A DNA stretch of 64,000 nt, taken from Scenedesmus sp. PABB004. Lineage: Eukaryota. The notes under the pieces are model-generated. The model was not told the origin of the DNA. It did no database searches and worked only from the letters and a program-made list of their open reading frames with translations. The stretch spans positions 744,001 to 808,000 of the forward strand of contig CM026547.1 of NCBI GenBank assembly GCA_014905635.1, written 5' to 3'. Positions 14,130 to 43,934 of this stretch are shown piece by piece. Position numbers and translations under genes: made by a program. Every line of letters starts with the position of its first letter. The first letter of the stretch is position 1.

Positions 14130-17100
14130 TCACACCCACGGCCGCCAGCCCTCCCAGCAGCGCGCCAGGATGCGCTCATCTGTCGCAAGCTCCAGCAGCA
14201 CGCCCGCGACGGCCTCGGCGCCGCCCGGCAGCAGGCCGTGCAGCGGCAGCCCGCGCCGCACGTACGCCGCCGCGGCGCCGGCCGCGCCCCCGCCCGCCGC
14301 GGCGCCGGGCGCCGGCGCGCCCGCGAGCGCGGCCGCCATGCCCGCCCAGGCCGCCTGCCCCGCCGCGTCGCGCGCGGTGCCGTGCTTGGCGGCCGCCTCG
14401 GCGGTAATGACGCCCGCGGGGTTGTGCCCCGCGATGCGGCGCAGCACCTGGCCGACCTTCACGTCGGCCACGCCCAGCGCGCGCGCCTCGCCGCCGGCGT
14501 CGCCGCCGCCCGGCGCCGGCGCGGGGAGCTGCGCCGCCGCGGCCGCGAGCTGGCCGAGCATCGCGCCCTCCTTCTGCCACTCTGCGATCGGCTCGCTGAG
14601 GAAGACCTGCAGAATGGACGCCAGCACCTGCTGGCTCTGCATCGCGGCGTCGACCCACGCCACGACCGCCGGCGCGAGCAGGCCGCACGCGTCGTGCGGC
14701 TGCAGCACGCCGCGCAGCTGCCGCGTGAGCCGGAACGGCGGCAGCTCCGGCACGGGCAGCGCCTGCGGCGCGGCGCGGCGCGGCGCGGCGCGCTCAGCGG
14801 GGCGCGCCCAGCGGCGCGCGCCCAGCGGCGCCGGGGCGCCCGCCGCGCTGGGGTGCTGGCCGCGGCGCCCGGCCCCCCATCTCGCAGCGCCGGCCGCGCG
14901 GCCGCGGGAGCCGGCGGGGCCCCGCGCCGCACCAGCACGGCGGTGCCAAAGGCGTAGCCAAAGTCGATCGGCACCACCGACCCGCTGCCCTCGGCGAGCA
15001 GCAGGTTGCCGAGGTGCCTGTCGCCGAGGCCCACCAGGTACCCAGCCGCGCTGCTGGCGGCCAGGCTGGCCGCAAACGCGGAGCGCACGCGCAGCCAGGC
15101 CTCGGCGTGGAGCGCGCGGCGGCGCAGCGCGTGGCGCAGCGCGTCCCACGGCAGCTGGGCCTGTTATTGCTCGGCGGCGGCGGCGGCGGCGGCGGCGGCT
15201 GAGCGCGGGGGCGCGCGCGTGCAGGCGCGGCCGCGGCGCGGCGCCCACCTCGGCGCGGCGCAGCCCCGCCACCACGCGGTCGTCGGGCGCCGCCCACGCG
15301 GCGCGGTAGGCCTTGGCGACGTCGCCCCGGCCGTGCGGCCGGGGATCGCCTGCAGGCGGGCGATTGCCGCGCGCGCTCGCTCGGCGGCGCGCGTGCAGCT
15401 GGAGCACGCGCGAGGCCCGGCGCCTGCGCGCGCACACACACCTGCTGGAACAGCTCCGCCGCGCGCTCCATCGCGCCCGGCTCCAGCGCGCGGCCGATCA
15501 CGTCGACCATGGGCGTCGTGCCCTGCCGCGGCGGCGCGGCGGCGGCGGCGGCGGCGGCGGTGGAGCGGCCCGCGCTGGGTGCCGGGTCGCGCGGCGGCGG
15601 CACTTCCGCAGCGGCACTGGCGGCGCGGCGGACCTCCACAAAGCCGAGCAGCCCCAGGTGCGGCGAGCAGGGGACGGCGTCGTATGTCACGAGCGCGTCG
15701 CCGAGGCGCCGCGCCGCGCACGCGGCGTGCTCGGCGGCGAGGCGCGCCATGACCACAAAGAGCTGCTCGATGCGCTGCGGGGCAGCGGCGGGGCGGCGGC
15801 AGCAACGCAGCGTTGAGCCGGGGCGGGGGCGGCGCGCGTGGCGGCGGCGCGCGCGGCGGCGACGTGCGCGGCGGCGGCGACGTGCGCGGCGGCGCGGACC
15901 TCGTCGAGTCGCGCGTCCTCGCCGCCCTTGACCACAAACTTGTGCGTCCTGGCGGGTGCGGCGGGGCGGGCGCGGCGGGGCGGGCGCGGCGGGGCGGGTG
16001 AGGCGCGGCGTCAAGGGCAGGGAGGCCGGCGTGGAGGCGCCCGGCGGCACCTGAAGTCGCTGCTGTGCACGGCGAGGAGCTTGGGGCGCTGCTTGGAGTT
16101 GAAGATGTGGCAGCTCGTGCCAAAGTCGTGCACCGCGACGGGGCCCTGCGAGTCGGCCGCCAGCAGCGCAGCGCCGGCGGCCGCGCCGCCGCCGGCGCGC
16201 TCGGCGGCGCGGCCGCGGCGAGCTCAAGCGCAAACGCGTCGGCGTTGCTGACCGCCAGCATCCTCGGCAGCAGCAGCGGCGTCCGCGTGGCGGCGCCTGC
16301 GGAGCGGGGGGGGGGGGGGCACGCACGTGGGCGCAGGCCTTCCCGCCGGCGGGCCGGCGCTGCGGCGCGGCCGCGCAGTTGACTGCGCACACCCTGGCGC
16401 TCGGCGAAGCGCCCGAACCAGCCCGACAGCCGCTCGAGCGCGATGTGGCCGAGCGCCTGGTAGCTTGGCTTGTCGGCCTCGGCCCTGAACGCAAGCCAGG
16501 CGTCACGGAAGGTCGCGAGCCGCAGGTGCTCGCCGCGCGGGCCCAGCCGGGCCGCGAGCGGCGCGCCGACCGCCTCGGCAAAGGCCTGGTTGATCGTGGA
16601 CGCGCGATGCGGGCCGCGGCCGCGCCGCGCGGGCGCCGCGCCCTCCTGGCGGCGGGCGGACGCGCAAGCGGGCGGGCGGGAGTGTTGGCCCCGCGCCGGC
16701 CGGGCGCGGCCGCCGGCCCGCGCCGCGCGCGTGCGTGTGCGCGTGCGGTCTCGCACGGACCTGCAGGAAGCGGGTGACGACGTCGGGGTGGATGGCCTCG
16801 ACCCACAGCCGCCGCAGCTCGCCCTCGTCCTGCGCCGCCCAGGCCGCCGCGACGGCGCCGCTCCACGCGTCGAGGCGCTGCTTGGGCAGCGTGAGCTCGT
16901 CGAGCGCGGCCACCAGGTCGGGCAGCTCCCCGAGCGCGGGGCCGCGCAGCAGGGCCTCAAGCTGCGCCGCGCGCGCGAGCGCGGCCGCCGCAGCCGCGGC
17001 CGCGGCGGGGTCGGGCGCGGCCGCGTGGCGCTGCCAGTGCTCGCGGCTCATGGTAAATGGGAGGTACAGGCGCTGAGGGAACCTGGCCAGGTTGTGGGGG

Positions 17101-20100
17101 GGTTGTGGCGGGGCGACACGCACGGTCAGGCGCGCCGAGCACGCGGTGTGCGGGCGGGAAACAAGTCCACGCGCTCGCGCACACGCGCGCGCGCGCGCGC
17201 GCGTGCCGCCGCCGCTGCGCCCACCTGGCTGCGAGCGCCTCGAGCGGCGCGCGCAGCGCCTCGCCCGCGTCGCCGTCGCCGAGCCGGATGAGCAGCTGCG
17301 AGGCCCACGGCAGAAGCACGTGCAGCGGCACCGCCTGCCACCCCGCGGCAAACGCGGCCGCGGCGGCCGCGCCGCCGCCGCCGCCGCCCGGGCGCGCGGC
17401 GAGCGCCGCCAGGACGGTGGGGACGTGCAGGCGCGCCGCGCCGCTGTGGGGGCCGCCCGCCGCCATGGCTGCCAGCAGGTGCCGGACCGCCAGCGCGGCG
17501 AGGCCGCCCGCGGCGCTGACGACGCCGGCCGCGTCGCCCGGCAGCGCGCCCGCGCCCGCCCCCGGATCCGCGTGCTGCTGCTGGTGCAGGTGGCTGCACA
17601 GGAGGCCAAACTCGAGCTGCACCGACCCGGCGCTGCCCGCCGCCGCGGACGCCGCGCCCTGCGGCGGCGGCGCCTCCGCGTCCGCGGCCGCCTGCAGCGC
17701 CAGCGCAGCGTGGTAGTCCTGCACCGCGGTCGCGTAGTGCTGCCGCACGACGGCCGCCGCGGCCGCGGCGGCGCCCTCCGCACCGGACGCGGCTGCCGCC
17801 GCGCCGCCGGCGGACGGCGCGTGCCGCGCGATCGCGGCCGCCGCGCCGGCCTCGGCCACGAGCGCGCGCGCGCCCAGCGCTGCGGCCTGGCCTGGTGCCA
17901 GCGCGTGCGCCGGCGCGGCGGCCTGCTGCCGCGCCGTCGCAGCGAGGGGCGCGAGGGCCTGGAGGTAGTGCTGCAGCAGCGGCAGGCTGCTGGGGTCGGT
18001 GGGGCAGGCCGCGAGCTGCGCCAGCCCCAGGCGCACACCGGCCAGCACGCCGCGCGTCTCGAGCGCCGCGAGCTGCGCGGGCGGCACGAGCGCCGCCACG
18101 CGCAGGCGGCCGAGGTCGGCGGCGGACGTCGCCAGGAGCGCCTTGGCGGCGTCGAGGCAGCCCGCCGCGACGAGTCGCCCCGCGGCGAGCAGCTGCAGCT
18201 CCGCCAGGCCGCCCTCCGCCGACGCCGCGAGTCGGCGGCGCAGCCCCCCGTCGAGGCCGCCCTGCAGCTGCAGCGTCGCGAGCAGCTGCCGGCGCAGGCC
18301 CAGCACAAGCAGCAGCGGCGCAGCAGCCGCGTTGGCGGTCGACGGCCAGCGCCGGCGCCAGCGCGGCAGCAGCACGCCGCTCAGCGCCTCGGCCGCGCCA
18401 CGCCACGCGCCCGGCAGCGCGGGCGTGAGCTGCGCGGCGCCGAGCGCGCCAGCCGCGGCCGCAACGCTGCCGCCGGGCGTGCCAGCGGCCGCGGCCCCGC
18501 CCATCGCGACAGCAGCGTCGCGCAGCGCGGCCCTGAGCAGGGCCGTGAGCTCGTCCAGCTCCGCCGCCGGCTGCAGCACGCCCGCCGCCGCCTGCAGCGC
18601 GCTGAGCGAGGAGCCGCCGCTGGACGACCAGCGCGCGCAGAAGAGCCTGGGCGCGACGCGTTCCGAGGCACGAGGGCAGCGCAGCGGGTGAGCGGGCGGG
18701 CAGGCGAGCGGGTCACGGCGCCGTGTGCCGCCGCGCGCTCCACACCTGAGCGCCTCGCTGAGGGCGGAGCGGCACGCCTCGACAGCGTCAGGCCGCTGCA
18801 GCAGCTGGCACAGCGCGAGCTCGACGCCTGCGGGAGCGGCGGCGGGGCGCGCGCGGGCCGCGCTCGGCCGCCCCGCCCCGCCCCCGCGGCGCCCGGCGGC
18901 GCGCAGCGCGCGCGGCGCGGCGCGCGGCGCGGCGCACCCGCGACCTCCTGCAGCTGCTGCAGCCACGCGCCCTGCTCACGCGCCGCCTGGAGCAGCCCGC
19001 CGGCGCCGAGCAGCGCGGTGTGGCCCGACGGCCCCACCAGCAGACAGGACTGGACGTACGGGACCAGGTAGTCGCGAATCTGCGGCAGCGCCGGCGGGCG
19101 CGGTCGGCGGGCGGACGGCGGGCGGACGGCGGTGGCGCGCGCCGCGGTGCAGGCCCGGCGCGGCGCCGCGGTGCAGGCACGGCGCGCCGCCGCGCCTCCT
19201 TGTTAGGGGAGCTGAACAGGCGCGCCAGGTCGGGCGCCGCCGGCTCGGCGCCCCCCTCAGCGTCGTCGGGCGTGACGTCTGCCTGGACCTGCTCCTGGAT
19301 GACCTCCCACTGCCCGAGCTGCTGCAAGCAGGTCAGCCGCTCGGTAAACGCGAGCTCCTCCTCGCAGTGGCTCGGCACGCCGCCGGCGCCGAGCAGCGCC
19401 GCCGCGCCGCCCTGCGGCGCCGGCGGGCCCGCGCCGCCGCCGCCGGCGGCGGCGTGCTGCTTCGCCGCCTCGTGCAGGCGGGTGCTCTCCTCAATGACGG
19501 AGTCCAGCAGGTCCAGCGCCGCCTGGTGCCGCCCCGCCGCGACCAGCCCCAGCGCGTGCCGCATGCCTGCAGCCGGGCGGCGCGCGCGGCGCGCGTGTCG
19601 CGGGCGCGGGGCCGGCGGCGGGCCGGCCTGCACGGGCCGCCCGCGACTCGGCGCTGCCCGCCGGCGGCGCCGCGGCGCGCACCTGGCGACTTGACAAGGT
19701 GCCGCAGCCGCACGAGCCCCAGGAGGTCGGGCTCAGCCAGCGCGCCGTACAGCTCGGCCAGCGCACGCCAGCAGGCGGGCGGGTCGGGCTGGCGCAGCGC
19801 GCCGCCGGCCGCGGCGCCCGGCTCGGCACCCGTGACGAGCACCGGCGCGAGCGGGAATCCCTGGTCAGGCCGCCGGCCGCCGGTGGCCGCTGACTCGGCG
19901 ACCGCGCCCTGGCCGGAGGGGTCTGCGGCAGTGACGCGGCGCGAGCAGCGGCGGCGGCGGCGGCGCGCGTGAGCGCGGGCCGGGCGCGGCGGCCCGCACA
20001 CCCTCGCGGCGCACGTGCTGCGGTGGCGCCCACCGGCGTAAAGCATCTGCTCCTCAACCTGCGCCGCCGCCGCGCCGAGGCCGCCCGACGCCTCCGCGGC

Positions 20101-23100
20101 GGCGAGCAGCAGCCGCGGCTCGAGCCACAGCGAGCGGTCGGCGGCCGCGAGCTGCTGCAACGCGTCCACCAGCGGCGGCGCGTGCGGCGCGGCGGCAAAG
20201 GATGCCGCGAGCGCCTCGCGCACCGAGCACAGGTCGTCCCTGAGCGCGCGGCGGGCACGCGCGTCGAGCGCCGCGCCGCGTCCAGCCTCCGCCGCCGCAG
20301 CGAGCATGCTGCCGTGCAGCGCGGCGAGCAGGCACGCCGCGATGGCCGGCCGCGCGCCCGCGAGCGCCGCGAGCGGGCCCCACAAGCTCTTGGGCGTGAC
20401 CGCCTGCACGTCAGGCAGCTCGCCGTTGCGGTAGTCCCTGGCGCCGGGCGGCGGCGGCGGCGGCATGGGAAAGGCGCGGTGGCGTGGGTGGGGCGCGGCG
20501 CGCGGCGGCGCGTGGGGCGGCGCGCGGCTTACACGGCGCACGGCCCGGCGGCGGCGCGCCGCGGGCGCCGGCGCGGGCGCACCTGATGAGCTTGACGTGC
20601 GCAGCGCGCGCGCGGGCTGCCGCCTCGGCGCGCTGCTGCCGGCGCAGCTCGCCCTTGCGGAAGTCCTGGCCCTGCGCGCGGCTGGCCTTGATGGGGCGCC
20701 GGGAGAGGTCGAGCACGCGCAGGCTGCCGGCGCCGCCGGCCGGCACGGCGGCGCCCCCGCCCAGCGCCGCGCCGGCGCCGGCAACGACGACCCGCACGGC
20801 GCCGCCCCGCTGCGCGGGGCCGCGCGCCAGGCCGGCAGCTGCTTGCGTGAGCGACAGCGTCTGGCTGGCCGGGCCGCCGCCCAGCCTGACCAGCGTCGGG
20901 CTGAGCGACGCACGACCCGCGAGCTGCGCCGTGCTCAGGAGCACCTGCGACAGGCTGGCGCCGCCCTCGCCGCCACCGTCGCCGCCGCCGAGCGCGCCGG
21001 CGCCGGCGCCGTCGCCCAGCTGGGTGAGCACGGCGAGCGAGGCGGCGCCGGAGGCAAAGGTCCCGCCCGCCTGCGTCTGGATTGGGTAGTCAACGAACGC
21101 GCAGCTCGACAGTGGCGCACTGAAGAGGCTGCCCGTCCAGGCGCTGCCCGCCTCGCGCGGCAGCGCCAGCAGCAGCCCCGCGGCCGCCGCGGGCCAGCGC
21201 GCCTCGGCGCCGCGCGCCGCGGCCTCAGCACCGCCCGGGTCGAGCCCCGCCTCGGCCCACGCCTCGCCGAGGCGCCGGCGCATCGCTGCAAGCTGGCGCA
21301 GCAGCGCTGCGAGGCGCTGCGCGGGGGCGCGCGGCAGCAGCGTGGTGTGGGGCGTGCCCGGGCAGAGCTGCGCGAGCTTGGCCAGCTCCTCCTCCGCCGC
21401 CGGCTGCGCGGGGCCGCTCAAGGCGTTTGCCGCGTCCACGGCGCCCGTGCTGTGCCAGAAGCCCGCCGCCGCCGCGCGCAGCGACGGCGCGCGGTCGCAC
21501 GCCAGCACGAGCAGCGCCGCCTCGAGCCGCTGCTGCGCGGCGCTGAGCTGCTCGGCGAGCGCGCCGACGTCGCCGCCGCCGCTCGCAAGCCGCAGCGCGA
21601 GCGCGTCCACGCGCCGCCACGCCGCCACGAGCAGCGCCAGCAGCGCGCCGCGCACCTCCGGCTTGCCGTGACACAGCAGCGCCGGCAGCTGCGCCAGCAC
21701 GAACCGCGCCCCCGCCAGCGGGGCCATGGCCGGCAGCAGCTGCCCCGCGAGCTGCAGCCCTGCCAGCTGCATGCCCGTGCTGCCAGCGCACGGCAGCGTG
21801 CCCGGCGCGAGGCGGGCCAGCGCGTCGTCCTCCAGCAGCTCGGCCGCAGCCGCGGGCGAGGCGGCACACCTGCGCGGCGCGCGGGCACCGGCGCGGCGGC
21901 GGCGACGGCGGCGGCAGGCAAGGCGTGAGGCGCACGGGGCGGCGCGGCGCGAGGCGGCGTGCGCGTCCCCCGCGCGCGCGGCGCACCGCTGCCGCAGGAG
22001 CATGAGCGCCACGCTGCGCAGCGCGGGGCCCAGCCCCCGCTCCGGCCGCAGCAGCGCCTGGACCAGCCACGCCACGAGGTTGGCGCCGCGCACGCCGCCG
22101 CCCGACCACAGCAGCGCCTCTGCCGCGCCGCGCGCCTGCTCGCGCGCCGAGCGCGCGCCGGCGGGCGGCGCCGGCGCGGCGCCGTCTGCCGGCCGTGCCA
22201 CGGCGCCCGCCGCGCCCTCCAGAAGGCGGACGAGGTTGGCGTGCTTCCCGGTGCTGAACATGCGGCGCATGCTGTCAGCCAGCTCCACGGCGACCTGCGG
22301 GGGCGGCGCGGCGCGGGCGCTGGTCGCCGCCGGCGCGGCCGCTCGCGGCGCCGCGCTCCGGGGGGCGCCACCGCCGCTGCGGCGCCACGCACCACGCCGC
22401 TGCGGACTTGCAGCTCCACCACGCCCGCCACGGGTGGCCCGCCCGCCGCGGTGACGGCCTCGGCCGCGGCCTGCCGCTGCTCAACGCGCAGCAGGCCCAG
22501 CAGCAGCAGCCCCGCCGTGTGGCCGAGCCGGACCGCGCGCGTGGGGGTGAGGGCGCGGTCTTTGATGTGGCCCAGCAGCACCGACCACAGCGCGGCTGCG
22601 GGCGCACGCGGCGGCGGGGCGAGCGTGGGAGCGCGCTCGTGAGCCGCGCCGCCGGGCCGCAAGCGAACGGCAGAGCCGCGCCGCCCGCCGCCGCGCACCT
22701 GCCGCGCGGCCCCTGCGCATGAGCTCCGGCGCGTGGCCGCGGGACAGCGCGAGCCCGAACAGCTGCAGACCGTACGAGAGCCGCGACGCAGCCCCGGCGC
22801 CGGTGGCGGCGCGGCCGCGGCCGCGGCCGCCGGGGCTGGCCACCTGCGCGGCCGGGCCCGCGTCGGCGAGGTGGCGCGCGACGTCGTCGCCGGTGAGCGC
22901 CACCCGGCTGCCCCAGCGCTGCATCAGCGCGTCGATGAACCGCAAGCTGGCTGCGCTGCCGGAGCTGTCTGACGCGTCAAAGCCCACCGCGGCGAGGTGG
23001 CGCAGCAGCGCGCCAGCGGGCGCCGACACGCACGCGCCGTGCGCGAGCGGGCCGTCGTCTGCCGCACGCGGCGGCGGCGGCGGCGGCGGGCGGCGGCGGC

Positions 23101-26100
23101 GGCGCGGGGCGGTCGGGCGCGCGCGGCGGCGGGCGGCGGCGACGCCCGCGCGGCTGGCGCGCGTGCTGCCATTTGGTCGCACCTGACGTGCGCTCAAACA
23201 GCCTCGGCCACATGACCGACACGAGCACCAGATCACGCAGCACGTAGCTGAACCGCCCGGGCGCGACGCCGCCGCCCGCGCCCCCGCGCTGGCCCGGTTG
23301 CTGCTGCTGCTGCTGCTGCTGCCCCGGCTCGGCCGCGCCCGGGGGCAGCAGCGCCGCGACGAGGCTGGGGAACAGCAGCTCGCCGTGCGCGGCGAACAGC
23401 GTGTCGCTGACGTAGACATCCTCCGGCCGCGCCTCGGCTCCGGCCGCACCAGCGCGCGCCGGACCTGCGCCCGCCGGGTCTGCGCCGGCCTCCGCGCCCT
23501 GGCCGCCGGCTTGGTCGCCGCCGCCCTCGCCGCCGCCGGCGCCGGCGGGGGTGCCGGCCGCCGCGCCGTCGACGTCCATGGGCTGCGCGGCCGCCCCGCG
23601 GGCGTCGGCGGCGGCCCCGCGGGCGCGCCCGCGGGCGCGTCCCCGCGCGCGCCGCCGCGGACCGCGGATGCGACCGCGCGCGCCACCCTCGCCTCGCGCG
23701 CCCTGACCTCCACATGCAGCACCGCCTTGGCAAGAAAGACGCGCACCGCGCGCGGCGCGGCCGTGTCGCCCAGCGCCTGCGCCAGCAGCGCCATCCAGCG
23801 CGGCATGCCGCCCTGCGACGCGGAGTGCCGCGGCGGCGCCCCGGTCGAGGCGGCGGCGCGCTGCACGCTGCGCGCTGCGCGGCTGGACTCCTCCGCGCCA
23901 TGGCCCGCACCGGCACGTCCGAGGGTAGCGCCAGGGCGCGCTCAATGAGCCGGACCAGCGGCAGCATCGTCGGGTGGGCATCGTAGGCATCGTCAATTGG
24001 CAGGTCCTGTCGCTCCCTGTGGCGGAGCGCCGGCGGGGCGGCAAGCGAGGCTGGGCGGAGGCTCGCACGGCGCGGTCGCCGAGGCGGCGCCGGCGGCGGC
24101 GCACCTCATGGCCAGGCCGACGGCCTCCTCCGGGCTCAGCGCCAGCAGCCCCGCCGCGGCGAGCTGCTCGTGCACCGCCGCCAGCGCTGCGGGGCTCGCG
24201 TCCGCGCCCTGCACCGCCAGAGCCAGCGCGTCGTGGTAAAGCGCGGTGGCCGCCTGCGAGGCGCCCCGACTGGGCACCGGGCCGCCAGGCCCGCCGTCGG
24301 CGCCGGCCTGCGGCGTCGCGGCGACGGCCGCCGCCTGGCTGGCCGCCAACAGGCCCTGCGCCTGGCTGGCGACCAGCTGCGACGCGTCGCCGAGGCTGGC
24401 CGCCAGCGCCTGGCTCGTCAGCTGCATCACGCCGTCAGCCGACATGGTGAACAGCTGGCTCCCGCCGCCGCGCGCGCCGCCGCGCTGCGCGCCGGCCGCG
24501 GCGAGCGCCTGCAACTCGCGCTGCCGCCGCCGCGACTGCTGCTCGCTGCCGCCGGGCCCGCGCGCCGCGCCGGCGGCGCCGAGCGTGCCGAAGCTCACAC
24601 GCGACAGGGCGCCGACGTCGAGCAGGTGTCCCCACATCTGCGCTGGGCTTTGCCTGGGGCGGCCGGCGGCGGCGGCGGCGGCAGCGTGCGTGCGGCGTCG
24701 GGCGCGAGGGCGCGCGTGCGGCACGGCGTCAGCGGCGGCGGGCGGCGCGCTCACGTCTTGGCGCCCGTGAACGCGGGCGCAAACAGCTGCGCCTGAGATT
24801 GCGTGCAGCGCAGCAGGCTCGCGGCGGCCGCGTACGCCGCGCAGCGCACGCAGCGCGCGAGCGGCTCGTTGGCAAGCGCCGCGGCACCGAGCTTGCGCGC
24901 GTCGGCGGTCGCCTGCTTCACCACCGCGCCGTGCTTGCCGGGCAGGCCCGCGACCACGCCCTCCAGCGCGGCGCGGTCCAGCTGGTCGTACATCGACGCA
25001 AGCAGGCGGTACGCCGCCCAGCGGCAGCCGAGGAGCCACGCCTCCTCATGCTCGCCAGCCACCGGCGCCGCCGGCGCCGCCGCGGCGCCGTGCTGCGCGA
25101 GCGCGAGCAGGCCGGCCACGTGGTTGCGAAACCACGCGGCGCGCTGCTGCGGGTGCGGCGCGAGCTCGAGCGCCGGCAGCAGCAGGTGCTGCAGCACCGC
25201 GAGGCGCAGGCCGAGCGAGTGGCCAGCGGCGTCGTCAAACACGTGGCGCCAGCAGTCATCCAGCAGCGCCTGCGCCGCCGCTGGGATGGCCGCCGGGTCG
25301 CCCTGTGCGCTGCCCGGCGGCGGGCCGCCGCCGCCGCCGGGCGAGGCCGGCGCCGGGCTGTCCGGCCGCGCGGCCTGCACAAGCCGCGGCCGCTTGGCGG
25401 CGGGGCTGGCGGGCGGCGCGCGCGCGTCGCCCTGTGTGGCCGGCGCCGGCGCGCGCCACACCGCCGCCGCCACGACCGCGAGGCGCAGCTCCAGGGCTTC
25501 CTGGAAGGGGTGCGGCGGCTCGCCTGCGGGCGGGCGGCGCGGGCGGGCGGCCGCGGCGCGCGTGGGCGCCCCGGGCGCGCGGCGCGGGCCGGGCGCCGCG
25601 GCGCGGCCGGGCGTCGGGGTGCGGGGCGCACCTCCCGCGCCCGGCTCGAGGCGGCCGCCCATCTTCTGGAGCTCTGGCAGCAGCACGTCGATCAGCAGGA
25701 GCAGCACCGCCGTCGAGGCGCCCGCGCCTGCCTCCGTGCCGCCGGCGGGTGCCGACTTGGCCAGCGCGACGGCCGCGCCCGCCAGGCCGAGCAGCTGATC
25801 CCGGTACGCCACGCCCGCCGGCGAGCGCCTGCGGCGGGGCGCGCGGGCGGCGGCGGGTCGGCGGCGCCCGCGCCCGCGCCCGCGGCGAGGGCGGCGGCGC
25901 CCGCCCAGCGGCCCCGCGCCGCGACGCACTTTGAGATGCGCGTCGTCACGCCCCAGCCGGACACCACATCGTCGAGCGTGCATCGGAGTCCCGCCAGCGC
26001 GTCCGCGACCGCCCCCGCCTGCTGCGCCTGCGCCGCCAGGCCCAGCAGCACCGGGCCCAGCGCGCCGACCGCCTGTGTGACCAGGACCTGCGACTGCACG

Positions 26101-29100
26101 CTCCCGCCGCCGCTGGACAAAATTTTGCAAAAGGCGGCGACCGTCCAGGCAAAAGCGGGATTGGCGGCGGGGCTCAGCACGCGCGCGCCGTCCAGCTCCA
26201 CCAGAGCCACCAGGAGGTTGAGCGCCGTGCCGCGACAGCCCTGCGGCGCGGTCGGATCGAGCAGCGGCGCAAGCGAGGGCAGGCCTGCGCGCGGCGCGGC
26301 GCGGGGTGCGTTAGCGGAGCGGCGCGGGCGGGGCCCAGCGCAGCTGTTGGCGCGGCGCGTGCCCTCGCCCCCTTGGGTCACCTGCAAAAACGTGGCCCAG
26401 GAACGCGCCCGTCCGCAGGTCCGTCCGGCGCGCGCCGGCAGCGTCCGACGGCGCGAGGCTGCGCAGCGCGCCCAGGAGCAGAACCTCGACCGCGAGCGCC
26501 GCGCTGGCCACGCCGGCGCTGGCGGCGGCGGGCTGCTCGGCGCGCGCTGCGTCGCCGCCGCCGGCGCCGCCCTTGCCGGCCGCAGCGGGCGCAGCAAGCG
26601 CCGCGAGCAGCGGCGGCAGGAGCCTGTCTGCATTGAAGATGAGCCAGGCGTGCAGGCGGTGACCAAACACGTGGCACAGCCGCTGCCCCGCCGGTTTGGT
26701 CACCAGCTGCAGCAGCTCCGTGGGCGGCAGCCCAAGCTGCAGCGCGAGCTGCAGGGCTCCGTGCGCGGCGTCCTCGACCTGGGGCGGCGGCCGCACCGCG
26801 CCCGGGCGGCCGCCCACGCCCGGGGCAAAGCCGCCGCCAGCGTCCAGCCCCACCAGGCCCAGAGCGAGCGCCAGGCTCGCCTGGCAGAGCTGCCGCTGCA
26901 GCGCCCCGCCACCGGGCGCGAGCAGGGAGCCGCCAGGCCAGGCGCGCGCGTCCGGCTGCAGCTCGCCTGCCGCAATCAGGCCTGCGCCGCGGCGGCGCGG
27001 GCGGGGCCGCGCGCCTTGGTGAGTGTGGCCCGCCACAGCTTAGCCCCCGGCGCGACCGCCCGGCAAGCACGCACCCTTGACGACGCGGCTCACTGCCGAC
27101 AGCGCCGGCTCCCGCAGCGCCGCCCCTGGCGCCAGCACGGGCAGCACCACGCTGCGCAGCAGCGCCAGCAGGTCCGCCTGCAGCTGCGCCAGGGCGCCCG
27201 GCTGCTTTGTTGCTGCGTCGCGCAGCAGGGTGCGCACCGCCGCCTGGAGTCTGGTGCGCGCGGCGACTGCAGCGGCGGCGGCGGCGGCAGCGGCGGGGGC
27301 GGTAGCGGCGGCTGCGTTGTCCGGCCGCGCCAGCCCCGACGCTGGCAGCGCGCGGCGGCAGCAGCCTCGCCCGGGCACACCTTCGGGCGGCGAAAAGCCA
27401 AGCCTTTCTGGCGCCAGCAGGCACATCAGGCACAGCCGCCCCACGCTGCCGGGCCCAGCGCCCGCAGCAGCGGCCACCGCGCCGGCGCCGGTGCGCGCCG
27501 CCGCCGCTGCCAGCGCCACGAGCGCGCGCTCACGTGCGGCCTCCAGCATCCCGCTGCCCAGCAGGTGCTGCGCGAGCTCAAGCGCTGCCAGCACGGCCGC
27601 CTGCAGCTCGGCCGGCCCCGCCGCCAGCAGCAGGTCGCCGCTGGCGAGCGGGGAGAGGGCAGGGCCAGCCGCCGCCGGTGCCGGCGCTGCAGTCGCGCCG
27701 CCGCCGCCGCTCGGCTGCCCGACAATGTCTGGCAGGAGCAGCAGCAGCTGCGCGACGCCATCCAGCGCGCTGGGCACGGGGCTCAGCTGCTGTGCCAGCG
27801 AGCCCAGCTCTTTGGCGTCCAGCAGCCTGTGCGCGGCGGCGGAGCGGCTCACGCGCAGCGCTGCACGTTGCGCCGCGCCGCCGGCAGCCCCCCCCCCCCC
27901 CCTATTGCTCACCCCTGCTCCAGCGCCCAGCAGCACCAGTCGGCGGCGCCCGCCACGCCCCGCAGCCACGCGGCGCACACCGCCCTGCTGCCGGCAGCTG
28001 CGCCCGGCGCGGGCGGCGCTCCGAACAGCGCGCCTGCCACGGCCACCGGCGGGTGCGGCTCCTGCAGCGCCAGCATGCCGCGCAGCGCCTCCTGCTTGCG
28101 GCTGGTGCTGCCGGCGCAGTGCACCGCCGACAGCCATGCCATGACGCTGGACGCTGCGAACGGCAGGAAAAGGAGGACAGCCAGGTCGGGTCGTTGCTTC
28201 TGAGCGGCGACGCGGCGGCGCGCGTCTGCCGGCAGCGCCGCCCACCTGCTGCGTCGCCCGGCGCCGGCGAGGCAGCGCCCGGCGCGCCCGCTGCCGCGGC
28301 AGCCGCCAGCAGCTCGCGCGCGAGAATCGCGAGGAGCTGCTGCGCCGTGCCGCGCTGCGCCGGCGCCGGCGCGGCGGTCAGCGGCCACAGCCCGGCGGCC
28401 AGGAAGCCTCCCAACGGGCTCGATGCGTAGCCTGCTGGGGCGGGCGGGCGCGTGTGTTGGCGTGAGGGGCAGCCGCACGCGTGGGGTGCGTGCAGGCCCG
28501 CGCTCGACCAGCGCGCCACGCACCTGCCAGCCCCTGCGTGGCGGCGGCATCGCTGCCGCCCTCGTCGCTGGCGGGCGCCGCGAGCGTGTCGAGGCAGGGC
28601 GGCAGCCACTGCTGCAGCAGCACCGCGAGCGCCCGGCGCGCGGACGCCGCCGCGCTGCTGCCAGCGAGCGCGTCGCCTGCGGCGGGCGACGTGCGCAGGT
28701 CGACGTGGCGCAGGCGCGAGCATGCGCGCGCCGCGTGAAGGCAGCGCGCCCGCGCGCACCTGGGGCGTCCGCCAACGCCGCCACCAGGCGCCGCAGCACC
28801 TCCAGCAGGTGCGCCTCCACCAGCAGCGTGGCCTCGATGGGCTGCGCCAGCAGCAGCCGGCACGGCAGCGCCCTGTTGCGGCGCACGGCGCCGTGTGGGC
28901 AGGCGCGCGCCCGCGTGCACCGCGCGCCCGGCTGCACCGCGCCGCAATGCATGCGACCGCGTGTGCGCGCGCAGCGCCCGGCGCCGCACCTGGCGCACGC
29001 GGCCAACGCCTCCGCGGCGCCGCCGCGCTCGCACGCGGCGCGGCGGCCGAGTCGATCCAGCAGGCGCACGAGCAGCTGGCGCCCCGTGCGGCTCGTCGTG

Positions 29101-32100
29101 CCCGCCGCCCGCCCAGCGGCGGCGTGCCCGCGTGTGACCGCACACTTGAAGTACTCCCCGCACAGCAGGCTTGCGAGCTGCACCAGGCTGCGGCCACCGC
29201 CGCTTGCGGCAGCGACGCCGTCGCTGCCTGCGTCGTTGTTGCCGCCACCGCTGTTGCCGCCATCGCCGCCGCCGCCGCCGTTGCCGCCGCCGCAGGCTGC
29301 GTCCAGCAGGCAGTCCATGAGAACGCCGGCCGCGGCGCCGTCCGCGTCAGAGGAGCTGCGGCGCGCGCCGAGGCGGCGGCGCGCGGAGCGCGCTCAGCAC
29401 GCGCCCCGCCGGGGCTCCTCTGCGCTCTTGCCCAGCGCCCCCGCACCTGCCGAGCCAGTGCACAATCTGGTCGAGCAGCGCGCCGAACAGCTGCCACGCG
29501 ACGGGGTCGGCGCTCGCTGCGAGGCGCAGCAGCACCGGCCAGAGGCGCGCCGCCATGCCGGCAAACTGCACGGCCGCGGCGTGCTGCTCCTGCCCCGCTG
29601 CGGTCGCCACTGCGCGCGCAGGGGTGGCAACAGGCGCAGTCAGGGGGTGGTGAGGGAGGTGCCTGCGAGCGCAGCGCTGCACTCGGCGGCCAGCGAGGAA
29701 GCAGCGGCTCACGCTGCGCGGCGCCCTGCGCCATGTGCCCAATCGTCCACAGCGCCACGCTGTGCAGGGCCTCGAACGCCGCCACGCGCCGCGCGCGCGG
29801 GCCGCCGCCCTCCGCCACCGCCACGAGCTGCGGCAGCAACGCGTCCAGGAAGACCTGCGCGCGGCGGCGGCAGGTCAGCATGGCACGCACGCGGCGAGCG
29901 GCGCCCCGCGCCCCAGCGTGCCGCCCAGCGAGGCGCTCCCACCTCGAAGCTCACGGCGCCGCCGCCCTCGAGTGGGAAGGTGGTCGCCAGGCCCACGAGC
30001 GGCACGTCGCACCAGACCTGCCCGCCGCCGCCGCCGCCCGCGTGGCTCGCAGCCGACGCCGCAGCGGCTGCCAACGCTGACGCCGCGACGCCGCCCTGGC
30101 GGCCCAGCCAGAGCTGAATGCGCGGCTGCAGCGGCGCCAGACCCTGCGGCAGCGGCGAGCGGCGGCGCACCACACTCAGTGCTCGCCTGCGACGGCAGCG
30201 CGGGCAGCAACCCGCCGCCGCCGCTCGCCTTGCGGGCCGCCTCCTTGGCGCGCTGCTCTGCCGCGGCGCGCCGCCGGCGGTCGCGCGTGTACGCTGCTGC
30301 ACTCGTGTCCGGCGCCGAGGCGCCCTCGACCCCCGCGCCGCCGCCACCGCCGCCGCCGTCCTCGCCGTCCTCGCCGTCATCTTCGTCGGCCGGCAGGTCC
30401 AGGTCGCCCAGCTCCTCATCCTCGCCCCCGCCGCGGCCGGGTGGCGCGGCGCCGTCGTGCAGATACGGGTGCAGCAGCGGCACGACCGCCGGCAGCAGCG
30501 CCGCGAGCTGCGCCGGCTGCGCCGCCTCCCACGCCTCGAGCGCTGAGACCGCCACGGCCGCGACGGCGGGGCGGTCCAAGCCCAGGCGCAGCGCGAGGCG
30601 CAGCGGCGCCAGCGTGCGCTCCGCCGGCAGCAGCGCCAGCGCCGCGGGGGCGAGCAGCAGCTCCAGCGCCGCGGCCAGGCCCTGCTCGTCCAGCGCGTCG
30701 CAGGCGGCCGCCGCCGAGGGCAGCAGGCGCCGGAACAGCTCCGTGAGCTCCTCACGCTGCAGGGTCACCGCGCTGCCCGCCCCGCCGTCGCCGCGGCCCG
30801 GCTCCAGCAGCAGCAGGCCGCCGCACTCGCACAGGCCCAGCGCGCTCGCTGCCAGCTGGTAGAGGCCGAAGAGCCCTGGGTTCAGCGCCGCCGCCGAGAC
30901 GACGGCCAGCACGAGCGGCTGCGCCCAGGCGGCAAACGGCTCGGGGCCGAGCTCGGGCAGCAGGCTGGCCAGGAAGGCTGCGGCGGCGGCGGCGGCGGCG
31001 GCGTGCGTGGCGCGCGGGGTCGGGCGCGGGCCGGTGACGGCGCCCCAGATGCGCCCCCACCTGTGAGGTCCTGCAGGCCACGCAGCACGCCAGCGTCGCA
31101 CCGCACGCCACTGCCCGCGCCGCCGCCGACGGGGTCATCCTGATCGCCGCCGTCGCCGGCAGGCGCGGCCGCGCCGCGACCAGGTGGCGGCGCGGCCGCG
31201 TCGCCACCGCTGCCGCCAGCCGGGTCCAGCGCGCGGCGCTTGCGCGCCCGGCCGCCGTGCGCCGGCTCGCCGCCCTCCAGCTCCTGCGTCGCCGCCGCCA
31301 GCCGCACCGACGCCGCCGCCCTGCGCGCCGCCGCGTCGCCGGCGCCGCCCGCCTGGCTGGCGCCGCCAGGCGCGCCGCCGGCGCTGGCGGCCGCCGCCGC
31401 GCCCGCGAGCGCCGCCGCCGCCGCGCTCGCGTCGCTCAGCACGTGCGCCGCCGCGGGCTGCAGCGCCGCGAGCGCCGCATCCAGCAGGCCCCCGTACAGC
31501 GCCGCCCGCAGCGCCGGGGGCAGTAGCGCCGGCGCGGCGGGCGTGGTGCCGGGGCGCAGCAGTGCGAGCCACAGCCCGCGGTGGATGTGCCACGGGCGCA
31601 GCGCCGCGCCCGCGGCCTTGCCGGCGTCGGTGACGATCACCGGCCCGGCCTCGATCTGCGGCGGCGGCCGCGCCACGGCGGCGGCGGCGGCGGCGGCGGC
31701 GTCAGCCGCCCGCCTGCGCGGCGGCCGCCGCGCCGCGCCAGGCGCGCCCCCGCCGCGCACCTCCTCCGGTGTGAGCTGCGCGAGCGCGTGGCCCAGCAGC
31801 TCCCGCACCACGCTGTCCAGCACGGCCGCGCCGAGCACGCCGCCACCCTCCTCCTGCTGCGGCTGCGCGCCGGGCGCGGCCGCGCCGCCGCCGCCGCCCG
31901 CGGCCGCGGCCGCGACGAGCAGCCGCGCGAGCGCGGCCTGCGTCTTGACACGCTGCGAGGGCCACTGCCAGACGTACGAGCCTGCCGCGCGCGCACACAA
32001 GTGTGAGCGCGCAGGCGCCGCCCGCGGCGCCGCCCGCGCCCGCGCGCCACCGCCCGCTCGCCCGCGCGCACCCCGCCCGCCGCGCACCGATGAGCCGCGC

Positions 32101-32396
32101 CGCGACCTGCAGCGCCGCGTCGACGGCGGGCGACGAGGACGACGGCGCGTCCAGTTCTTGCGCGACCGCCGCCAGCGCGCCCAGCAGCACCACCTCGCGC
32201 TCCACGGGCGCCTCCTGCGCAGCGGTTGCGTCGGTTGCGTCGGTTGCGGAGCAGCAGCGTGCGCGCGCGGGCGGGCGCTGCGCGGGCGCGCGCGGGCGGC
32301 GCCCGCGGGCCGCGCCTGGAGCGAGTCGACGCCGCTGATGAGCGGCGACTGTGCCTGCACCAGGGGCAGCAGCGTCGCGAGCACCACGCGCAGCCC
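14130..32396 (-). CDS. PRKDC: DNA-dependent protein kinase catalytic subunit (PIKK); 5' end not found
   Basis: Kinase motifs KQRPKLL, VKGGEDARLDE|RIEQLF, YLVGLGDRHLGNLL...IDFGYAFG, PVPELPPFRLTRQL; FATC ending LATDERILARCWEGWRPWV*; DNA-PKcs-typical YRNGELPDVQ; long HEAT-type region; SQ/TQ clusters; dozens of short introns. Confidence 0.9.
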
Positions 32397-33059
32397 CTGC
32401 GCAGCGCAGCAGCGGCGGGCGCGGCGCGGCGCAGCGGGGGCGAGGGCGGGGCGGGGGCGGGCGTGAGCGCATGGTTGGCGTCACGGGAGCGCGGGGTGGG
32501 GGAGAGCGTTGCTGCCCGGCTGGCGGGGAGGGGGGCGGGGCGGTGGGTGCGTGCTGCCGCTGCGTGCGCGTGTGCGAGTGCGGTGGTGGTGGGGCCTTGC
32601 GGGAGCCGCGTGGATCGGGTCAGGAAGGCTGGCCCGGGACCTCCAAGCGCCGCGCGGGGCCGGCGGGGCGGCGGCGGCGGTTCAGGGCGCTGCGCGACGC
32701 GGTTCCACACCTCCGCCCTCACACACGGCCGCCCACGCTCGCACTGCCGATCACTCTCCACGGGAGCACGTAACACAGACGCAGGTTGGTTCGTCATCCC
32801 GCCGGCAACCTGTTGTACACAGACAGACGCAGTCTCAACCGCGTGCGCCGCAAGGCGGGTCGCGCGCCGCGCCGATTCGCAGGCTCCAAAACCTCCAAAA
32901 CCTCGCCGCCGCGCCACAAGGGGGGTCACACCAACACAACGAAGGGGGCCGGGGAACGGGGGTCCCAACGACAGAGTCACGCGGCGCACGGCACGAAAAC
33001 CTGGGCTCGGGGGCGGCCGCGAGGCCGCCGCGTCATGCCCGCCGCCGCCGCCGCCGCCG

Positions 33060-34561
33060 TCAGGCCTGCTGCTGCTGGCGCAGCGCGAGCACCTGCTTGT
33101 GCTCCTCCTCGACCAGCGCCAGGCTGCTGCACCGCGGCAGCGCCGCGGCCCAGCCGAGGTCGAGCGAGCGCGGCAGCACGACGCGCCGCAGCCGCGGGCA
33201 CGCCGCGACGAGGTCGCGCAGCGCGCCCGCGCCCACGCCGGCGCAGCGGTGCGCGTTGACCTCCACCAGCGCGCCGCAGCGCACGGCGAGCGCGCGCAGC
33301 GTATCGTCGGTCATCGCACGCGTTAGCTTGACGTGCGTCAGCCCGCCGCAGTTGGCCGCGAGCGCCGCGCCCGACGCGTCTGTGAGCTTGAGCAGCTTGC
33401 TGCTCAGCCGCACGTCGGTCAGCCCCCTGCACGCCTCGAGCAGCACGGTGAGCCCGCCGTCGGTCACGTGCTCGCTGTAGCCGCCGAGCGAGAGGCTCGT
33501 CAGGCCGGGGCAGTTGGCCGCGACCGCGTACAGCGACCTGCGCGCGGAGGGGCGGCGGCGCGCGCGCGTGGGCCGCGGTCGCGACCGCCGCTGCCGCAGC
33601 CGCTGGCGCTGTTTAGCTGCTATTCCTGGCGCCGCAACTGCCCCAGCGCCGCGCGCCGCCGCCTCCCCCCCCCCCCCCCCCCCGCCCCGCCGCGCGCGCC
33701 GCGCGCGCGCACCGGTCCGACACGCGGTCGCAGTTGTGCAGCGCGAGGCGGCGCAGGCGGGCGCAGCCCTCACTGAGCGCGATGAGGCCGTGGTCGTCAA
33801 AGAGCTCGGCGGGGAGGCTGTAGCGCGTGAAAAAGACCTCGAGCGCCTCGAGCGACTTGCAGTGCACCGCGAGCGCGCGCGCGAGGTCGTTGGTCATGCC
33901 GCCCACGCACGACGCGCGCTCGTCGAGGGAGAGCACGCGCAGGCGCGGCGCGAGCGCGGCGAGCGCGTACGCGCGCAGCCCGCGCGTGTGTGGGAGGACC
34001 TGGTCGCGCTTGACGCCGTTGGAGAAGCGCTGCGCGCCCTCGGCCGCGCGCGCGCCCGCGCTCCTGTGCGCGCGCGAGCAGCGGCGGCGCGTGGGCGCGG
34101 CGGCGGCGGCGGCGTGCGGCGGCGGCGGCGCACGCTGGCAGGGGCGGCGGCGCGTGCGGCGCGCGCGCCGCCCGCGCTCACCGCGCCATGCGCAGCACCT
34201 CGCAGCCGCCGCGCGAGCGCTGCAGCAGGCCGACGAGCGCCGCCGCGCTGCAGACGTGGCCGCACTCGCCCTCCTCGAAGCACAGCTCCGCCCAGTGCTC
34301 GCGGCCGGCCAGCAGGCGCGCGAGGCCGGCGCACGCGCACAGCAGCGCGCACCGCGACCGCAGGTCCAGCCGCGCGCACACCGACAGCACCAGCGCCGGC
34401 GGCAGCGCCTCCGTGAAGTCGACGCCCGGGCCGGGCAGCGGCAGCGCGGCGGCGGGCGGCGGCGCGCTGTCGCAAGCGTCGGCGTGCGGCGCCGCCGCGG
34501 GGCCGCCGTGCGCCGGCGCGGGGCCCGCCACGCAGACGGGGCCCATCACGTCGTCGTCCAT
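33060..34561 (-). CDS. F-box / leucine-rich repeat protein
   Basis: F-box-like ALPPALVLSVCARLDLRSRCALLCAC; cysteine-type LRRs (CARLRRLALHNCDRVSD, CPGLTSLSLGG..EHVTDGGL, CRGLTDVRL..LTDAS). Confidence 0.85.
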
Positions 34562-34896: not shown

Positions 34897-35949
34897 ATGG
34901 CCAAGTGGGACGTGAGTGGGCCAGCGAGCGCCGGCCGCGCAGGCGCCCGGCAGAACAGCAGCAGCAGCAGCGGCAGCACCTTCTAGCGGCGCCGTCGCCA
35001 CGCCGCCCGGCGGCGCCCGCGCTCGCGGGCGGTCGGGCCGCGTCCTGGCCCGCCATCAGGCCCCGCGCCAGCCGGCTGCGGCGCCGCCGCGCCGCTCCAA
35101 CCGCCCGCCGCCCGCGCCCGCAGGACCGGGACCCGCGCTGGGTGGTGCAGCACCGCGACGACGGGAAGAACGTCAACGGCTGGCACTGGGAGGACAAGAA
35201 CCGCTTCGACTGGGCCAAGGCGCGGCTGCAGGAGGTCCTGCCGGCGCTGCCGCCCGCGCAGGCGGGCGGGCTGCGCGTGGCGCGCGTGACGGACGTCGCC
35301 GGCGAGGTGCGGCGGCGGGCTCGGCGCGCGGCGCGCGGCGCGGCGCCGCGCCGGCGGCGGCGCGCAGACGCACGCCGCGGGCCGGCGCGGGCGCGCCGCG
35401 CAGGCGATGACGTCGACGCGCAAGGGCAACAAGAAGCTGGCCATCTACGACCTCAAAGTCACCATGAAGTGGGAGGCGCAGGGCGACGACGACGAGCAGC
35501 AGGCGCGCCCCGCGGGCGCGCCCCGCGGGCCGCACGGGCGCGCGGGCGCGCGGCGCGGGCGCGCGGCGCGGCGCCCCCTGGCGACGCCCCGCGCACGCGC
35601 GACGCCCGCGCGCGCGCCGCCCGCCGCCTTTTTTTTCGCCGCAGTACACGGGCACGCTGCAGCTGGATGACTTTGCGTCCCACAGCGAGCCGGAAGAGTA
35701 CGTGCTGACCGCGACAGCGGACGCGGTCGGCGACGCGGACAAGCGGGTGAGCGGCGCCGCGGCCGCGCGCCCGCGCCTGGCGGCGCGCGGACCAGCGGGC
35801 CGCGGGCGAGGCCGGGCGCCGACGCCGGGCGCCGCTGCCGCTGCCGCCGCTGCGCGCCGCAGCAAGTCTACAAGGCCGTCGCCGAGAGCTTGCGGCCGGC
35901 GATCGTCGAGGCGCTGCAGCAGCTGGTGCAGGAGATGGTGGAGCTATGA
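34897..35949 (+). CDS. Activator of Hsp90 ATPase, N-terminal-domain-only protein (Aha1_N / Hch1-like)
   Basis: MAKWD|DRDPRWVVQHRDDGKNVNGWHWEDKN (NxNxWHW motif), RKGNKKLAIYDLKVTMKW; stops after ...LVQEMVEL with no START-like C-domain. Confidence 0.85.
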
Positions 35950-36407
35950 CGCCGGCCGCGCTGCTGGCGCGGCGCTGTACATCACGAGCGAGGCGGCGGC
36001 CCGCCGGCCATTCTGGCTGGCTGCGCCGCCGGCACGGCGCTGCTGCAGGCGCAGCAGCGGGCGGCGCCGGCGTGCGGGCGTGGGCAGCGGGCGGCAGCGA
36101 GCGGCGGAGCGGAGCGGAGCGGAGCGGAGCAGAGCGTGCGGGGCGGACGCGCGGGAGGCACAGTAATCGGACCGCGCCGAGCTCCCCGCTTCGCAACACG
36201 GCCGTGCTGCGGCGGCAGCACGGCCGCTGTTCTTTTGTCGCGACGGCGCGGCTCGACCGCGCCTCCAGCGCGCCCGCCCCCCGTCCAGCGTGCCACGCTA
36301 GCGCTCCCCAACGCTCCGCGCCCGCGCGTCGACGCTCGCGGCGGCCACACGTGCAGCGGCAGCGGCAGCAGCAGGGGCGCGCGGCGCAGCGGCGCCTCCG
36401 CCCACGC

Positions 36408-37386
36408 ATGCAGACGCGCCGGAGCGGCGCCCACGCCCACATGCAGACGCGCCGGCGGCGCGCGGCTGAGCGCGAGAGCGGCGGGCCACCGCTGCCGGCG
36501 CTTCCCGCGGGTGTTCAGGCTGCAGTGCTCGCCGCGGCTGTTGCGGCCCACGCCGAGCCGGACGCGCTGGACGTGCACACCGGCTGTTCTGCCGCCTGGC
36601 TGGCAAGCCTGTCCCTGGTGTGCCGGGCCTGGCGCGACGAGCTGGCGACGAGCCCGGCGCTGCGCAGGCGCGCCCGGCTCGAGGCGCTGCGCGGCCTGGC
36701 GCTCCGGCACGACCACGCGCACCACGTCGTCTCAGCGGCGCGCTCCAGGGCGGCGCGGCTCAGCGCCGTGCCGCGCCGCCTGGCGCTCCGCTTCTCCGAC
36801 GGCTCGGCGGTCGACCTCGCAGTGCGGCGCCGCGGCGGCGCCGCTGGCGCCGCCGACGGGCTGCCCGCGACCGCGCTGGTCGTCGCCGCGCGCGCGGACC
36901 AGCTCACGGGCACCGGCCTGGGGGAGCTGCTGGCCGACCTCGACGCCCTGGACAGGCGCCACGCGGCGTCGATGGCGCTCCGCGTGGAGCCCGGCGTGCG
37001 CGGCGGCGACGGCCGAGGCGCGAGCGGCGGCGGCGCGACGATTGCGAGCCCGGCCGAGCTCGCGGCGGCCGCGGCGGCGCTGCTGCAGCGCGAGCTGGCG
37101 GACGTCGTGATGGAGGGCGACCCAGCAGGCGGGCGCCTGCTGTTTTTGCCGACGGCGCAGGGCTTCCGGCGGCGCGCGCCGCGACGTGCGTGAGTTGCGC
37201 CGCCTGTTCGTTCACGCCGGCAATCGCCTCCGTCATTCCACGCCGCCCTCCGCACCGCAACGCACGCAAATGTACGGCCTTTACGAGACCTGTCACTCTT
37301 CCAGCGGCTCGTGCGAGTTTTTGCAAGGCTGGACCACCGCCTCCCTGTACGATGTGCTCCGCGCGACGGCGCAGCACACCTCGTAG
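36408..37386 (+). CDS. Hypothetical protein with degenerate F-box-like N-terminus
   Basis: ATG at 36408 or 36441; LPALPAGVQAAVL...LASLSLVCRAWRD; ends either at TGA 37193 or, via GTGAGT...CAG intron 37190-37304, at TAG 37386. Confidence 0.5.
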
Positions 37387-37612
37387 CATTCGCGGCCACT
37401 GCCTTCAACAAGCAGGGCAGCGGCGGGGGCGAGAGCACCGGCGCCGGTGCTGCGCGCGGCTGACCCAAGACGCGGCGCACTCTACGAAACACAGCGGCGC
37501 CCGCGCGCTGCACGAGAGCGAGCTGGAGTAGATCTAGAGCACGCCGGCGGCGTGCAAGTGGGCGACGCCGGCCGTCGCCTCGTGGGCGGCGGCGGCAGCA
37601 GCGGCGGAGGCC

Positions 37613-43857: not shown

Positions 43858-43868
43858 TCACGGCTCCA

Positions 43869-43934
<66 letters not shown>

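Follow-up and report, generated by a model that had tools for sequence, protein, structure and literature searches.

We examined a 64,000-nucleotide stretch of DNA from Scenedesmus sp. PABB004 (assembly GCA_014905635.1, contig CM026547.1, positions 744,001 to 808,000; hereafter the window, whose own numbering is used throughout), in which a gene for the PI3K-like kinase DNA-PKcs appears to begin without the first part of its N-HEAT arm. G+C content is ~80% across the whole window (0.74-0.82 per 2-kb window), and the genes in it are of the spliced eukaryotic type. The recognisable part of the DNA-PKcs gene occupies 14133..32396 on the minus strand, ending at a stop at 14133, and comprises ~4400 coding-like codons interrupted by ~45 inferred introns. 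Upstream of it on the same strand lies an F-box/LRR gene of three coding exons (33060..34561), whose stop codon, TGA at 33062-33060, is separated by 663 nt from the first exon of DNA-PKcs that can be recognised; the original prediction, which had proposed that the DNA-PKcs gene might be split or trans-spliced, estimated this gap at ~660 nt. The neighbour is indeed of the FBXL type, as indicated by a Pfam F-box-like match (E 0.004) and by matches to FBXL17 and FBXL2 in the PDB (E ~3e-10) made through the LRRs. A run of ~22 G residues was seen in its second intron (33658-33682, minus strand).

The domains of the gene stand in the order known from DNA-PKcs. A Pfam scan of all stop-to-stop minus-strand open reading frames (ORFs) between 7 and 33 kb gave, in order along the gene, DNA-PKcs_N (~30684-30456, profile positions 673-750 of 810), CC1-2 (~29556-29449, profile positions 6-41), CC3 (NUC194, near 23.8 kb), CC5 (near 20.4 kb), PI3_PI4_kinase and FATC. 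The matches to CC1-2, CC3 and CC5 are weak and come from single ORFs; they stand in the right order, and all of them score under the curated cut-offs because the exons are short. Within the CC5 region, YRNGELPD (~20433-20410) fits the YRxGxxPD motif as given in the legend to supplementary figure 4 of PMC10419180. The kinase domain (PF00454, ORF 14462-15163, E 1.3e-17) contains GDRHLGN and IDFG, which conform to the catalytic DRHxxN and DFG motifs, and the FATC domain (PF02260, E 1.7e-5, 24.9 bits against a curated cut-off of 25.3) ends at the stop at 14133, in a region that tblastn matches to residues 3996-4181 of the Myrmecia bisecta protein. The kinase and FATC motifs are thus intact, as had been claimed. 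No Pfam FAT match was obtained on single ORFs, and tblastn matches to Myrmecia residues 3425-3660 lie at 17616-16668 (E 0.003-0.008). Overall, high-scoring segment pairs from tblastn are colinear with Myrmecia DNA-PKcs from residue 515 to residue 4181, and the end of the N-HEAT arm together with the start of CC1-2 is recovered by hhalign with a probability of 99.9. The best conserved N-HEAT exon (30229..30975) corresponds to approximately residues 630-800 of full-length relatives, with local hidden Markov model (HMM) E values of 2.2e-21 and 3.7e-28 and hhalign probabilities of 99.6-99.9.

The protein is very divergent and carries many inserts rich in alanine, glycine and proline. When the C-terminal exon was compared by HMMER with 1.84 billion representative proteins, 355 matches were returned at E <=0.001, the best at 79.7 bits and 43% identity, and all 12 of the long matches scanned were DNA-PKcs. 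The nearest detectable relatives are green algal, namely a partial protein from Astrephomene and a 3313-aa protein that clusters with an MMETSP transcript; through the latter, a full-length protein from Myrmecia bisecta (4181 aa) and a model of the N-terminal half from Bryopsis (2138 aa) were found. Three further searches were negative: phmmer of two N-terminal ORFs against the PDB gave no DNA-PKcs match, a search of proteins with the N-HEAT exon for longer homologues gave none over the range of 308-2000 aa that it covered, and a search of metagenome contigs with the same exon gave 598 pattern matches, none of which was confirmed.

The body of the gene has the look of a functional one. A codon-usage scan trained on the confirmed exons yielded coding segments totalling 4425 aa, with exons open over as many as 401 codons, and nearly all changes of frame are explained by GT-AG introns of 83-177 nt and a few of 291-320 nt; taken together, the inferred introns span ~45-320 nt, with a median of ~100 nt. 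The exception is a frame change at ~16186-16146 (region 16146-16260, minus strand), just before the N-lobe of the kinase, where no canonical intron of normal length can be placed. This could be an indel, whether an assembly error or real, a GC-AG intron of 41 nt, or a GT-AG intron of 111 nt that would drop 28 coding-like codons. Otherwise the gene stays open, with canonical splicing, through ~13 kb of coding sequence, which speaks against a pseudogene of long standing: either the remainder of the gene is still under selection, or any lesion is very recent or not real.

The most 5' exon that can be recognised (32316..32396, minus strand; 27 codons, phase 0 at both ends) encodes GLRVVLATLLPLVQAQSPLISGVDSLQ and, exactly as originally read, has no ATG; every sequence statement of the original prediction was in fact confirmed, give or take a base or two in the coordinates. 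By an eye count, 26 of the 27 codons of this exon have G or C in third position, and its codon log-likelihood is +23.8 in frame, compared with -20 and -41 in the two other frames. It is preceded by CTGCGCAG, in which the AG of the 3' splice site (32397..32398) scores 6.2 on a position weight matrix (PWM), above the median of 5.9 for 36 acceptors inferred in the same gene; read by eye, it is the only AG between 32480 and 32397. The quality of this acceptor had been anticipated, and so had a branch-like GCTCAC, whose position is corrected here to 32468-32463, and an in-frame TGA (32481..32483) that closes the frame of exon 1 upstream. The C-rich tract that surrounds the branch-like element (32399..32722, C-over-G skew 0.29-0.47) is a candidate first intron of 326 or 314 nt, or else a 5' leader. 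Within it, 32401-32600 ranks with the 150-nt windows of strongest C-over-G skew in the whole 64 kb (plus-strand skew -0.44 and -0.46). Only three tracts in the window reach a skew of at least 0.38 in windows of this size, and the other two, at 57201-57800 and 49601-49750, lie within RBR-ligase and hydrolase gene regions.

Downstream, exon 1 is followed by intron 1 (32215..32315), which is 101 nt long and of the GC-AG type, its donor, cag/GCGCGG, scoring 4.1. This boundary was preferred over a nearby GT because the alignment to Bryopsis DNA-PKcs runs gap-free across the junction of exon 1 with exon 2 (DSLQ/EAPV); it is equally gap-free across the junction of exon 2 (32088..32214) with exon 3, and the proposed joining of these two exons is thereby confirmed. 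Exon 2 alone matches positions 446-490 of an HMM built from two chlorophyte N-termini (E 0.022). Exon 3 begins SYVWQWPSQ and was placed at 31761..31981, its 3' limit being uncertain. Since exon 1 is without an ATG and a rough spliced model is without methionine in its first ~690 residues, this first homologous exon needs an upstream splice partner, as the original prediction held. The same absence of methionine speaks against a spliced leader, for which a start codon would be expected 3' of the acceptor.

How much of the arm is missing can be estimated from alignments. Once spliced, exons 1-3 match Bryopsis DNA-PKcs over its residues 384-473, exon 1 covering residues 384-409; the Smith-Waterman score of 133 was reached by none of 500 shuffled sequences (maximum 60). 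Against a profile of Myrmecia and Bryopsis, the same exons score 42.8 in hhalign, a value reached by none of 200 shuffles (maximum 23.4). These results bear out the resemblance to DNA-PKcs that the original prediction had proposed. Farther downstream, a weak colinear match is succeeded by a strong one (hhalign probability 99.6-99.9), in which residues 320-757 of the window model pair with template columns 620-986 or 628-974. When the Bryopsis protein is aligned by phmmer with the human protein of solved structure (300 bits), its G384 falls on human D380, so that the first homologous residue of the window gene is Bryopsis 384, or human ~380, well short of a complete arm, and the earlier figure of 350-400 missing residues proves right. 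The N-HEAT domain corresponds to human residues 1-891 according to the legend to Fig. 1 of PMC8549938; as judged by these alignments, the locus is without an equivalent of human residues 1 to ~379, or ~43% of N-HEAT. The Bryopsis protein matches Pfam DNA-PKcs_N from profile position 2, and the short form in the window would therefore be the derived one.

The missing part was sought in all six-frame ORFs of at least 20 aa, on both strands of the 64-kb window. Over this space no N-terminal match was obtained by tblastn with the N-termini of 16 homologues, by an HMM of the 16 sequences, by the chlorophyte HMM or by phmmer with the first 420 residues of Myrmecia and Bryopsis. The N-terminal searches did recover the known exons from 30981 downwards at E 1e-8 to 1e-28, and exon 2 at E 0.022, while for positions earlier than exon 1 nothing better than E ~3 was found in the window. 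Weak phmmer and tblastn matches at 42.5, 43.7, 43.8, 50.0 and 58.1 kb (E 0.6-44) were set aside as noise because each falls in an exon of another gene, in DNA without coding character or on the strand opposite to a coding segment. Sensitivity to short exons is low in such searches, exon 1 alone reaching only E 15, and coding potential was for this reason mapped as well on both strands; the stretch from 33080 to 32450 shows none. The view that no DNA-PKcs-like exon occurs upstream in the window is sustained, as neither profiles nor BLAST nor coding potential revealed a counterpart of residues 1-383 in any part of the 64 kb.

The space upstream is instead filled by other genes. Above the F-box/LRR gene lie plus-strand genes (35121-43426), which include a 3.4-kb tandem duplication, and, from there to the window end, minus-strand genes for a dual-specificity phosphatase, an actin-fragmin-type kinase, an alpha/beta hydrolase and an Ariadne-type RBR ligase. 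The two copies of the duplication (36797-40200 and 40329-43736) are 94% identical over 3449 nt; each is a plus-strand multi-exon gene in which no Pfam family was found, though only minus-strand ORFs were scanned there. On the other side of DNA-PKcs, a plus-strand Nudix-like gene converges on it at 13981-14133, with ~150 nt between the coding ends, which points to a compact genome. A minus-strand gene at 1333-8113, with Pfam IBN_N at its 5' end, is of a HEAT-type importin-like kind and unrelated to the DNA-PKcs arm. An Rfam scan of the whole window matched no family.

Two compositional features divide the 663-nt spacer. Patches of less than 70% G+C stand out from the 80% background at 741-1120, 11021-11300, 12081-12800, 32681-32980, 39921-40360 and 43501-43880, and at the five other gene ends that were compared, long patches of this kind lie 3' of stop codons and thus resemble 3' untranslated regions (UTRs). 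The patch in the spacer (32681-32980; 300 nt, T-rich, minimum 59% G+C) is probably the 3'UTR of the F-box/LRR gene. TGTAA is the usual poly(A) signal of green algae. It occurs once per strand in the 64 kb, and is therefore of no use for placing 3' ends, that of the F-box/LRR gene included. At ~32720 the low-GC, T-rich composition switches to the C-rich tract. The minus strand of the spacer (33062-32397) holds only three ATGs, at 33036, 32797 and 32472, and none of them is in the frame of exon 1 without splicing. ATG 32797, which the original prediction had named together with phase-0 donors near 32722 and 32710, does provide a geometrically valid leader exon (32723..32797) of 25 codons to donor 32722, or of 29 codons to donor 32710, and both donors fall at the compositional switch. 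They score 3.9 and 5.0, respectively, where the quartiles for donors are 3.5, 5.0 and 6.4, and the intron to 32396 would measure 326 or 314 nt, where introns of 291 and 320 nt are inferred in other parts of the gene. The two other ATGs were rejected as starts: ATG 32472 (32470..32472) shares its frame with exon 2, a frame that scores -34 to -41 over exon 1, and could not be brought into the frame of exon 1 by an intron of any workable size, while ATG 33036 opens an ORF of 19 codons with no phase-0 donor scoring above 0. Three in-frame cis solutions were found, namely ATG 32797 with donor 32722, ATG 32797 with donor 32710, and a read-through splice from the F-box/LRR gene at 33092.

All of these observations can be accommodated in several ways. 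Our best guess, which we put forward tentatively, is that the locus is truly truncated at its 5' end and is expressed from a local leader. The window would then hold the start of a genuine DNA-PKcs gene of the chlorophyte type, intact except that it lacks the first ~380 residues, and exon 1 may be spliced in cis to a short leader exon transcribed from within the spacer, for which ATG 32797 with donor 32722 or 32710 would be the only in-frame ATG solution that the spacer allows. The predicted product is an N-terminally truncated DNA-PKcs that would keep the distal N-HEAT, the cradle, FAT, kinase and FATC and be devoid of the proximal N-HEAT repeats. From the distal N-HEAT to FATC, its domain order is that of canonical DNA-PKcs (human PRKDC, Myrmecia and Bryopsis), including a CC5 with YRxGELPD; the canonical proteins differ in having human residues 1 to ~379, which the window locus is without. 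That the remainder is intact suggests that selection is still at work, and speaks against decay of long standing. Human DNA-PKcs has been engineered with N-terminal deletions, and these laboratory constructs resemble the predicted protein in that the proximal N-HEAT is gone while the cradle and kinase are kept.

Several points weigh against such a truncation. The proximal N-HEAT is present in both Bryopsis and human. The leader is poorly adapted, with a G+C content at third codon positions of 0.53 over its first 15 codons compared with 1.00 at four clear gene starts, and its ATG stands in the context gggATGa, whereas three of the four clear starts have ATGG. It lies inside the low-GC patch and may simply be 3'UTR of the F-box/LRR gene. 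The C-rich tract need not be an intron, as a similar tract is found directly upstream of the start codon of the Nudix-like gene, and it could instead be leader; if it is an intron, its 314-326 nt would place it with the very longest in a gene with a median of ~100 nt. Had the truncation been ancient and well settled, an adapted start codon would be expected, and there is none. Nor is there a clear precedent. We know of no natural DNA-PKcs orthologue without the proximal N-HEAT. Database homologues with short N-termini were considered as precedents and rejected, since longer members of their clusters exist (3515 vs 3749 aa in Aphanomyces, 3947 vs 4372 aa in Entosiphon); a third short homologue, P0153, was rejected because it starts only at CC1-2. 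No natural DNA-PKcs of such a short form is mentioned in the available portions of PMC10419180 and PMC8549938.

A second explanation, which we regard as rather unlikely though the nearest competitor to a local leader, is that the short form is an artefact of assembly or a very recent deletion or rearrangement specific to this strain. The break would then fall within the intron that precedes exon 1, the contig would be without the promoter and the first third of the N-HEAT arm, and what remains would not be a working gene as it stands. In favour of this, there is no adapted start, the only usable ATG having non-coding codon usage; in addition, DNA resembling the 3'UTR of the F-box/LRR gene directly abuts the intron-like tract, and the frame change at 16186-16146 could be an indel. 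A genome of 80% G+C is hard to assemble. According to PMC10419180, moreover, assembly and annotation errors are frequent in the long DNA-PKcs gene of green plants, and the green-algal gene is often split or truncated in annotations as a result of errors in assembly and prediction; the canonical lengths given there are 3935-4204 aa for Ostreococcus and Bathycoccus. However, the junction shows no run of N and no notable repeat, the only matches around it being to GC-rich low-complexity sequence. The contig is also good enough to resolve the 3.4-kb tandem duplication at 94% identity, and the long open exons suggest a low rate of base-level error. Finally, indels should accumulate quickly in a dead gene whose coding sequence is ~13 kb long, and at most one candidate was seen.

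It is also conceivable, but unlikely, that a different locus codes for the N-terminal ~380 residues, either as a separate polypeptide or as a transcript joined by spliceosomal trans-splicing at the 32397 acceptor, trans-splicing accounting for a small part of this explanation. The acceptor does look orphaned, its exon has no in-frame ATG, and the rough model lacks methionine over the long stretch noted above; the rest of the gene looks selected, and loss of a part conserved in both Bryopsis and human would be costly. Positive evidence of any kind is lacking, however, and the window gives no hint of a second locus. Usable, phase-compatible cis donors of normal strength lie upstream of the acceptor, at 32722, 32710 and 33092. 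To our knowledge, no search of the literature having been made, spliceosomal trans-splicing of split protein genes has not been described in green algae. Split nuclear genes of the Giardia type are joined by spliceosomal trans-splicing. The window locus is like these in having an exon at an acceptor without an obvious cis partner or start codon; it differs in that plausible cis donors exist and in that it is known here from the DNA of one locus alone. Free-standing relatives of the Myrmecia N-terminus (390 residues) were sought among shorter proteins and none was found, a weak negative given that the known Bryopsis homologue was missed too. Another comparison is with the split DNA-PKcs models of green plants treated in PMC10419180, which its authors put down to errors of assembly, annotation and prediction. 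There, as here, the gene is very long and its 5' and 3' parts are unjoined, but both parts are described as predicted from the same genome, with a transcript as the bridge in Klebsormidium, whereas the window locus has no 5' part within 31 kb upstream or 14 kb downstream.

Improbable, and more so than a second locus, is a variant of the discontinuous-gene idea in which an F-box/LRR module replaces the arm by transcriptional read-through. Here the last exon of the F-box/LRR gene would be alternatively spliced from 33092 to 32396, giving an FBXL-DNA-PKcs chimera with a shortened DNA-PKcs N-terminus, under the promoter and ATG of the F-box/LRR gene. The two genes are neighbours on the same strand only 663 nt apart, and the donor-like GT at 33091..33092, cag/GTGCTCGCG, is in phase 0, ten codons before the F-box stop, and of median strength (PWM 5.0). 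In-phase sites that reach this score are rare (7 of 6464 codon boundaries across the coding segments), and the arrangement would supply a well-adapted start codon. Yet a second, equally good in-phase donor lies at 33467 in the same F-box exon, which makes the coincidence weak. The intron would be 696 nt long, twice the longest inferred, with the 3'UTR-like patch inside it; the last ten F-box codons, counted by eye, all end in G or C, which suggests that the stop is in use; and a Pfam F-box or LRR domain was present in none of 17 DNA-PKcs homologues scanned.

Nested genes within a giant intron, with the N-terminal exons far upstream in cis, had also been proposed, and can be excluded for practical purposes: only the need of exon 1 for a partner speaks for it, while such an intron would have to be more than 31 kb long, with about ten genes inside it, in a gene with introns of ~100 nt, the region up to 64000 is filled by the F-box/LRR gene, the opposite-strand genes at 35121-43426 and unrelated minus-strand genes, and no N-terminal profile match occurs on either strand.

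In summary, ordinary causes of the short DNA-PKcs locus remain likely. Should a gap in the assembly or a deletion of recent date be the cause, the finding would itself be an ordinary one, and would serve mainly to warn annotators that a gene of 18 kb and ~45 introns, in a genome of 80% G+C, is easily mis-modelled. The N-HEAT domain is unique to DNA-PKcs among PI3K-like kinases, and it contributes to gripping the DNA end and to activation through Ku. A natural DNA-PKcs that is functional without the missing part, or that obtains it from another gene, would be informative as to how far activation depends on the arm, and would represent a rare case of a large PI3K-like kinase that has been remodelled.

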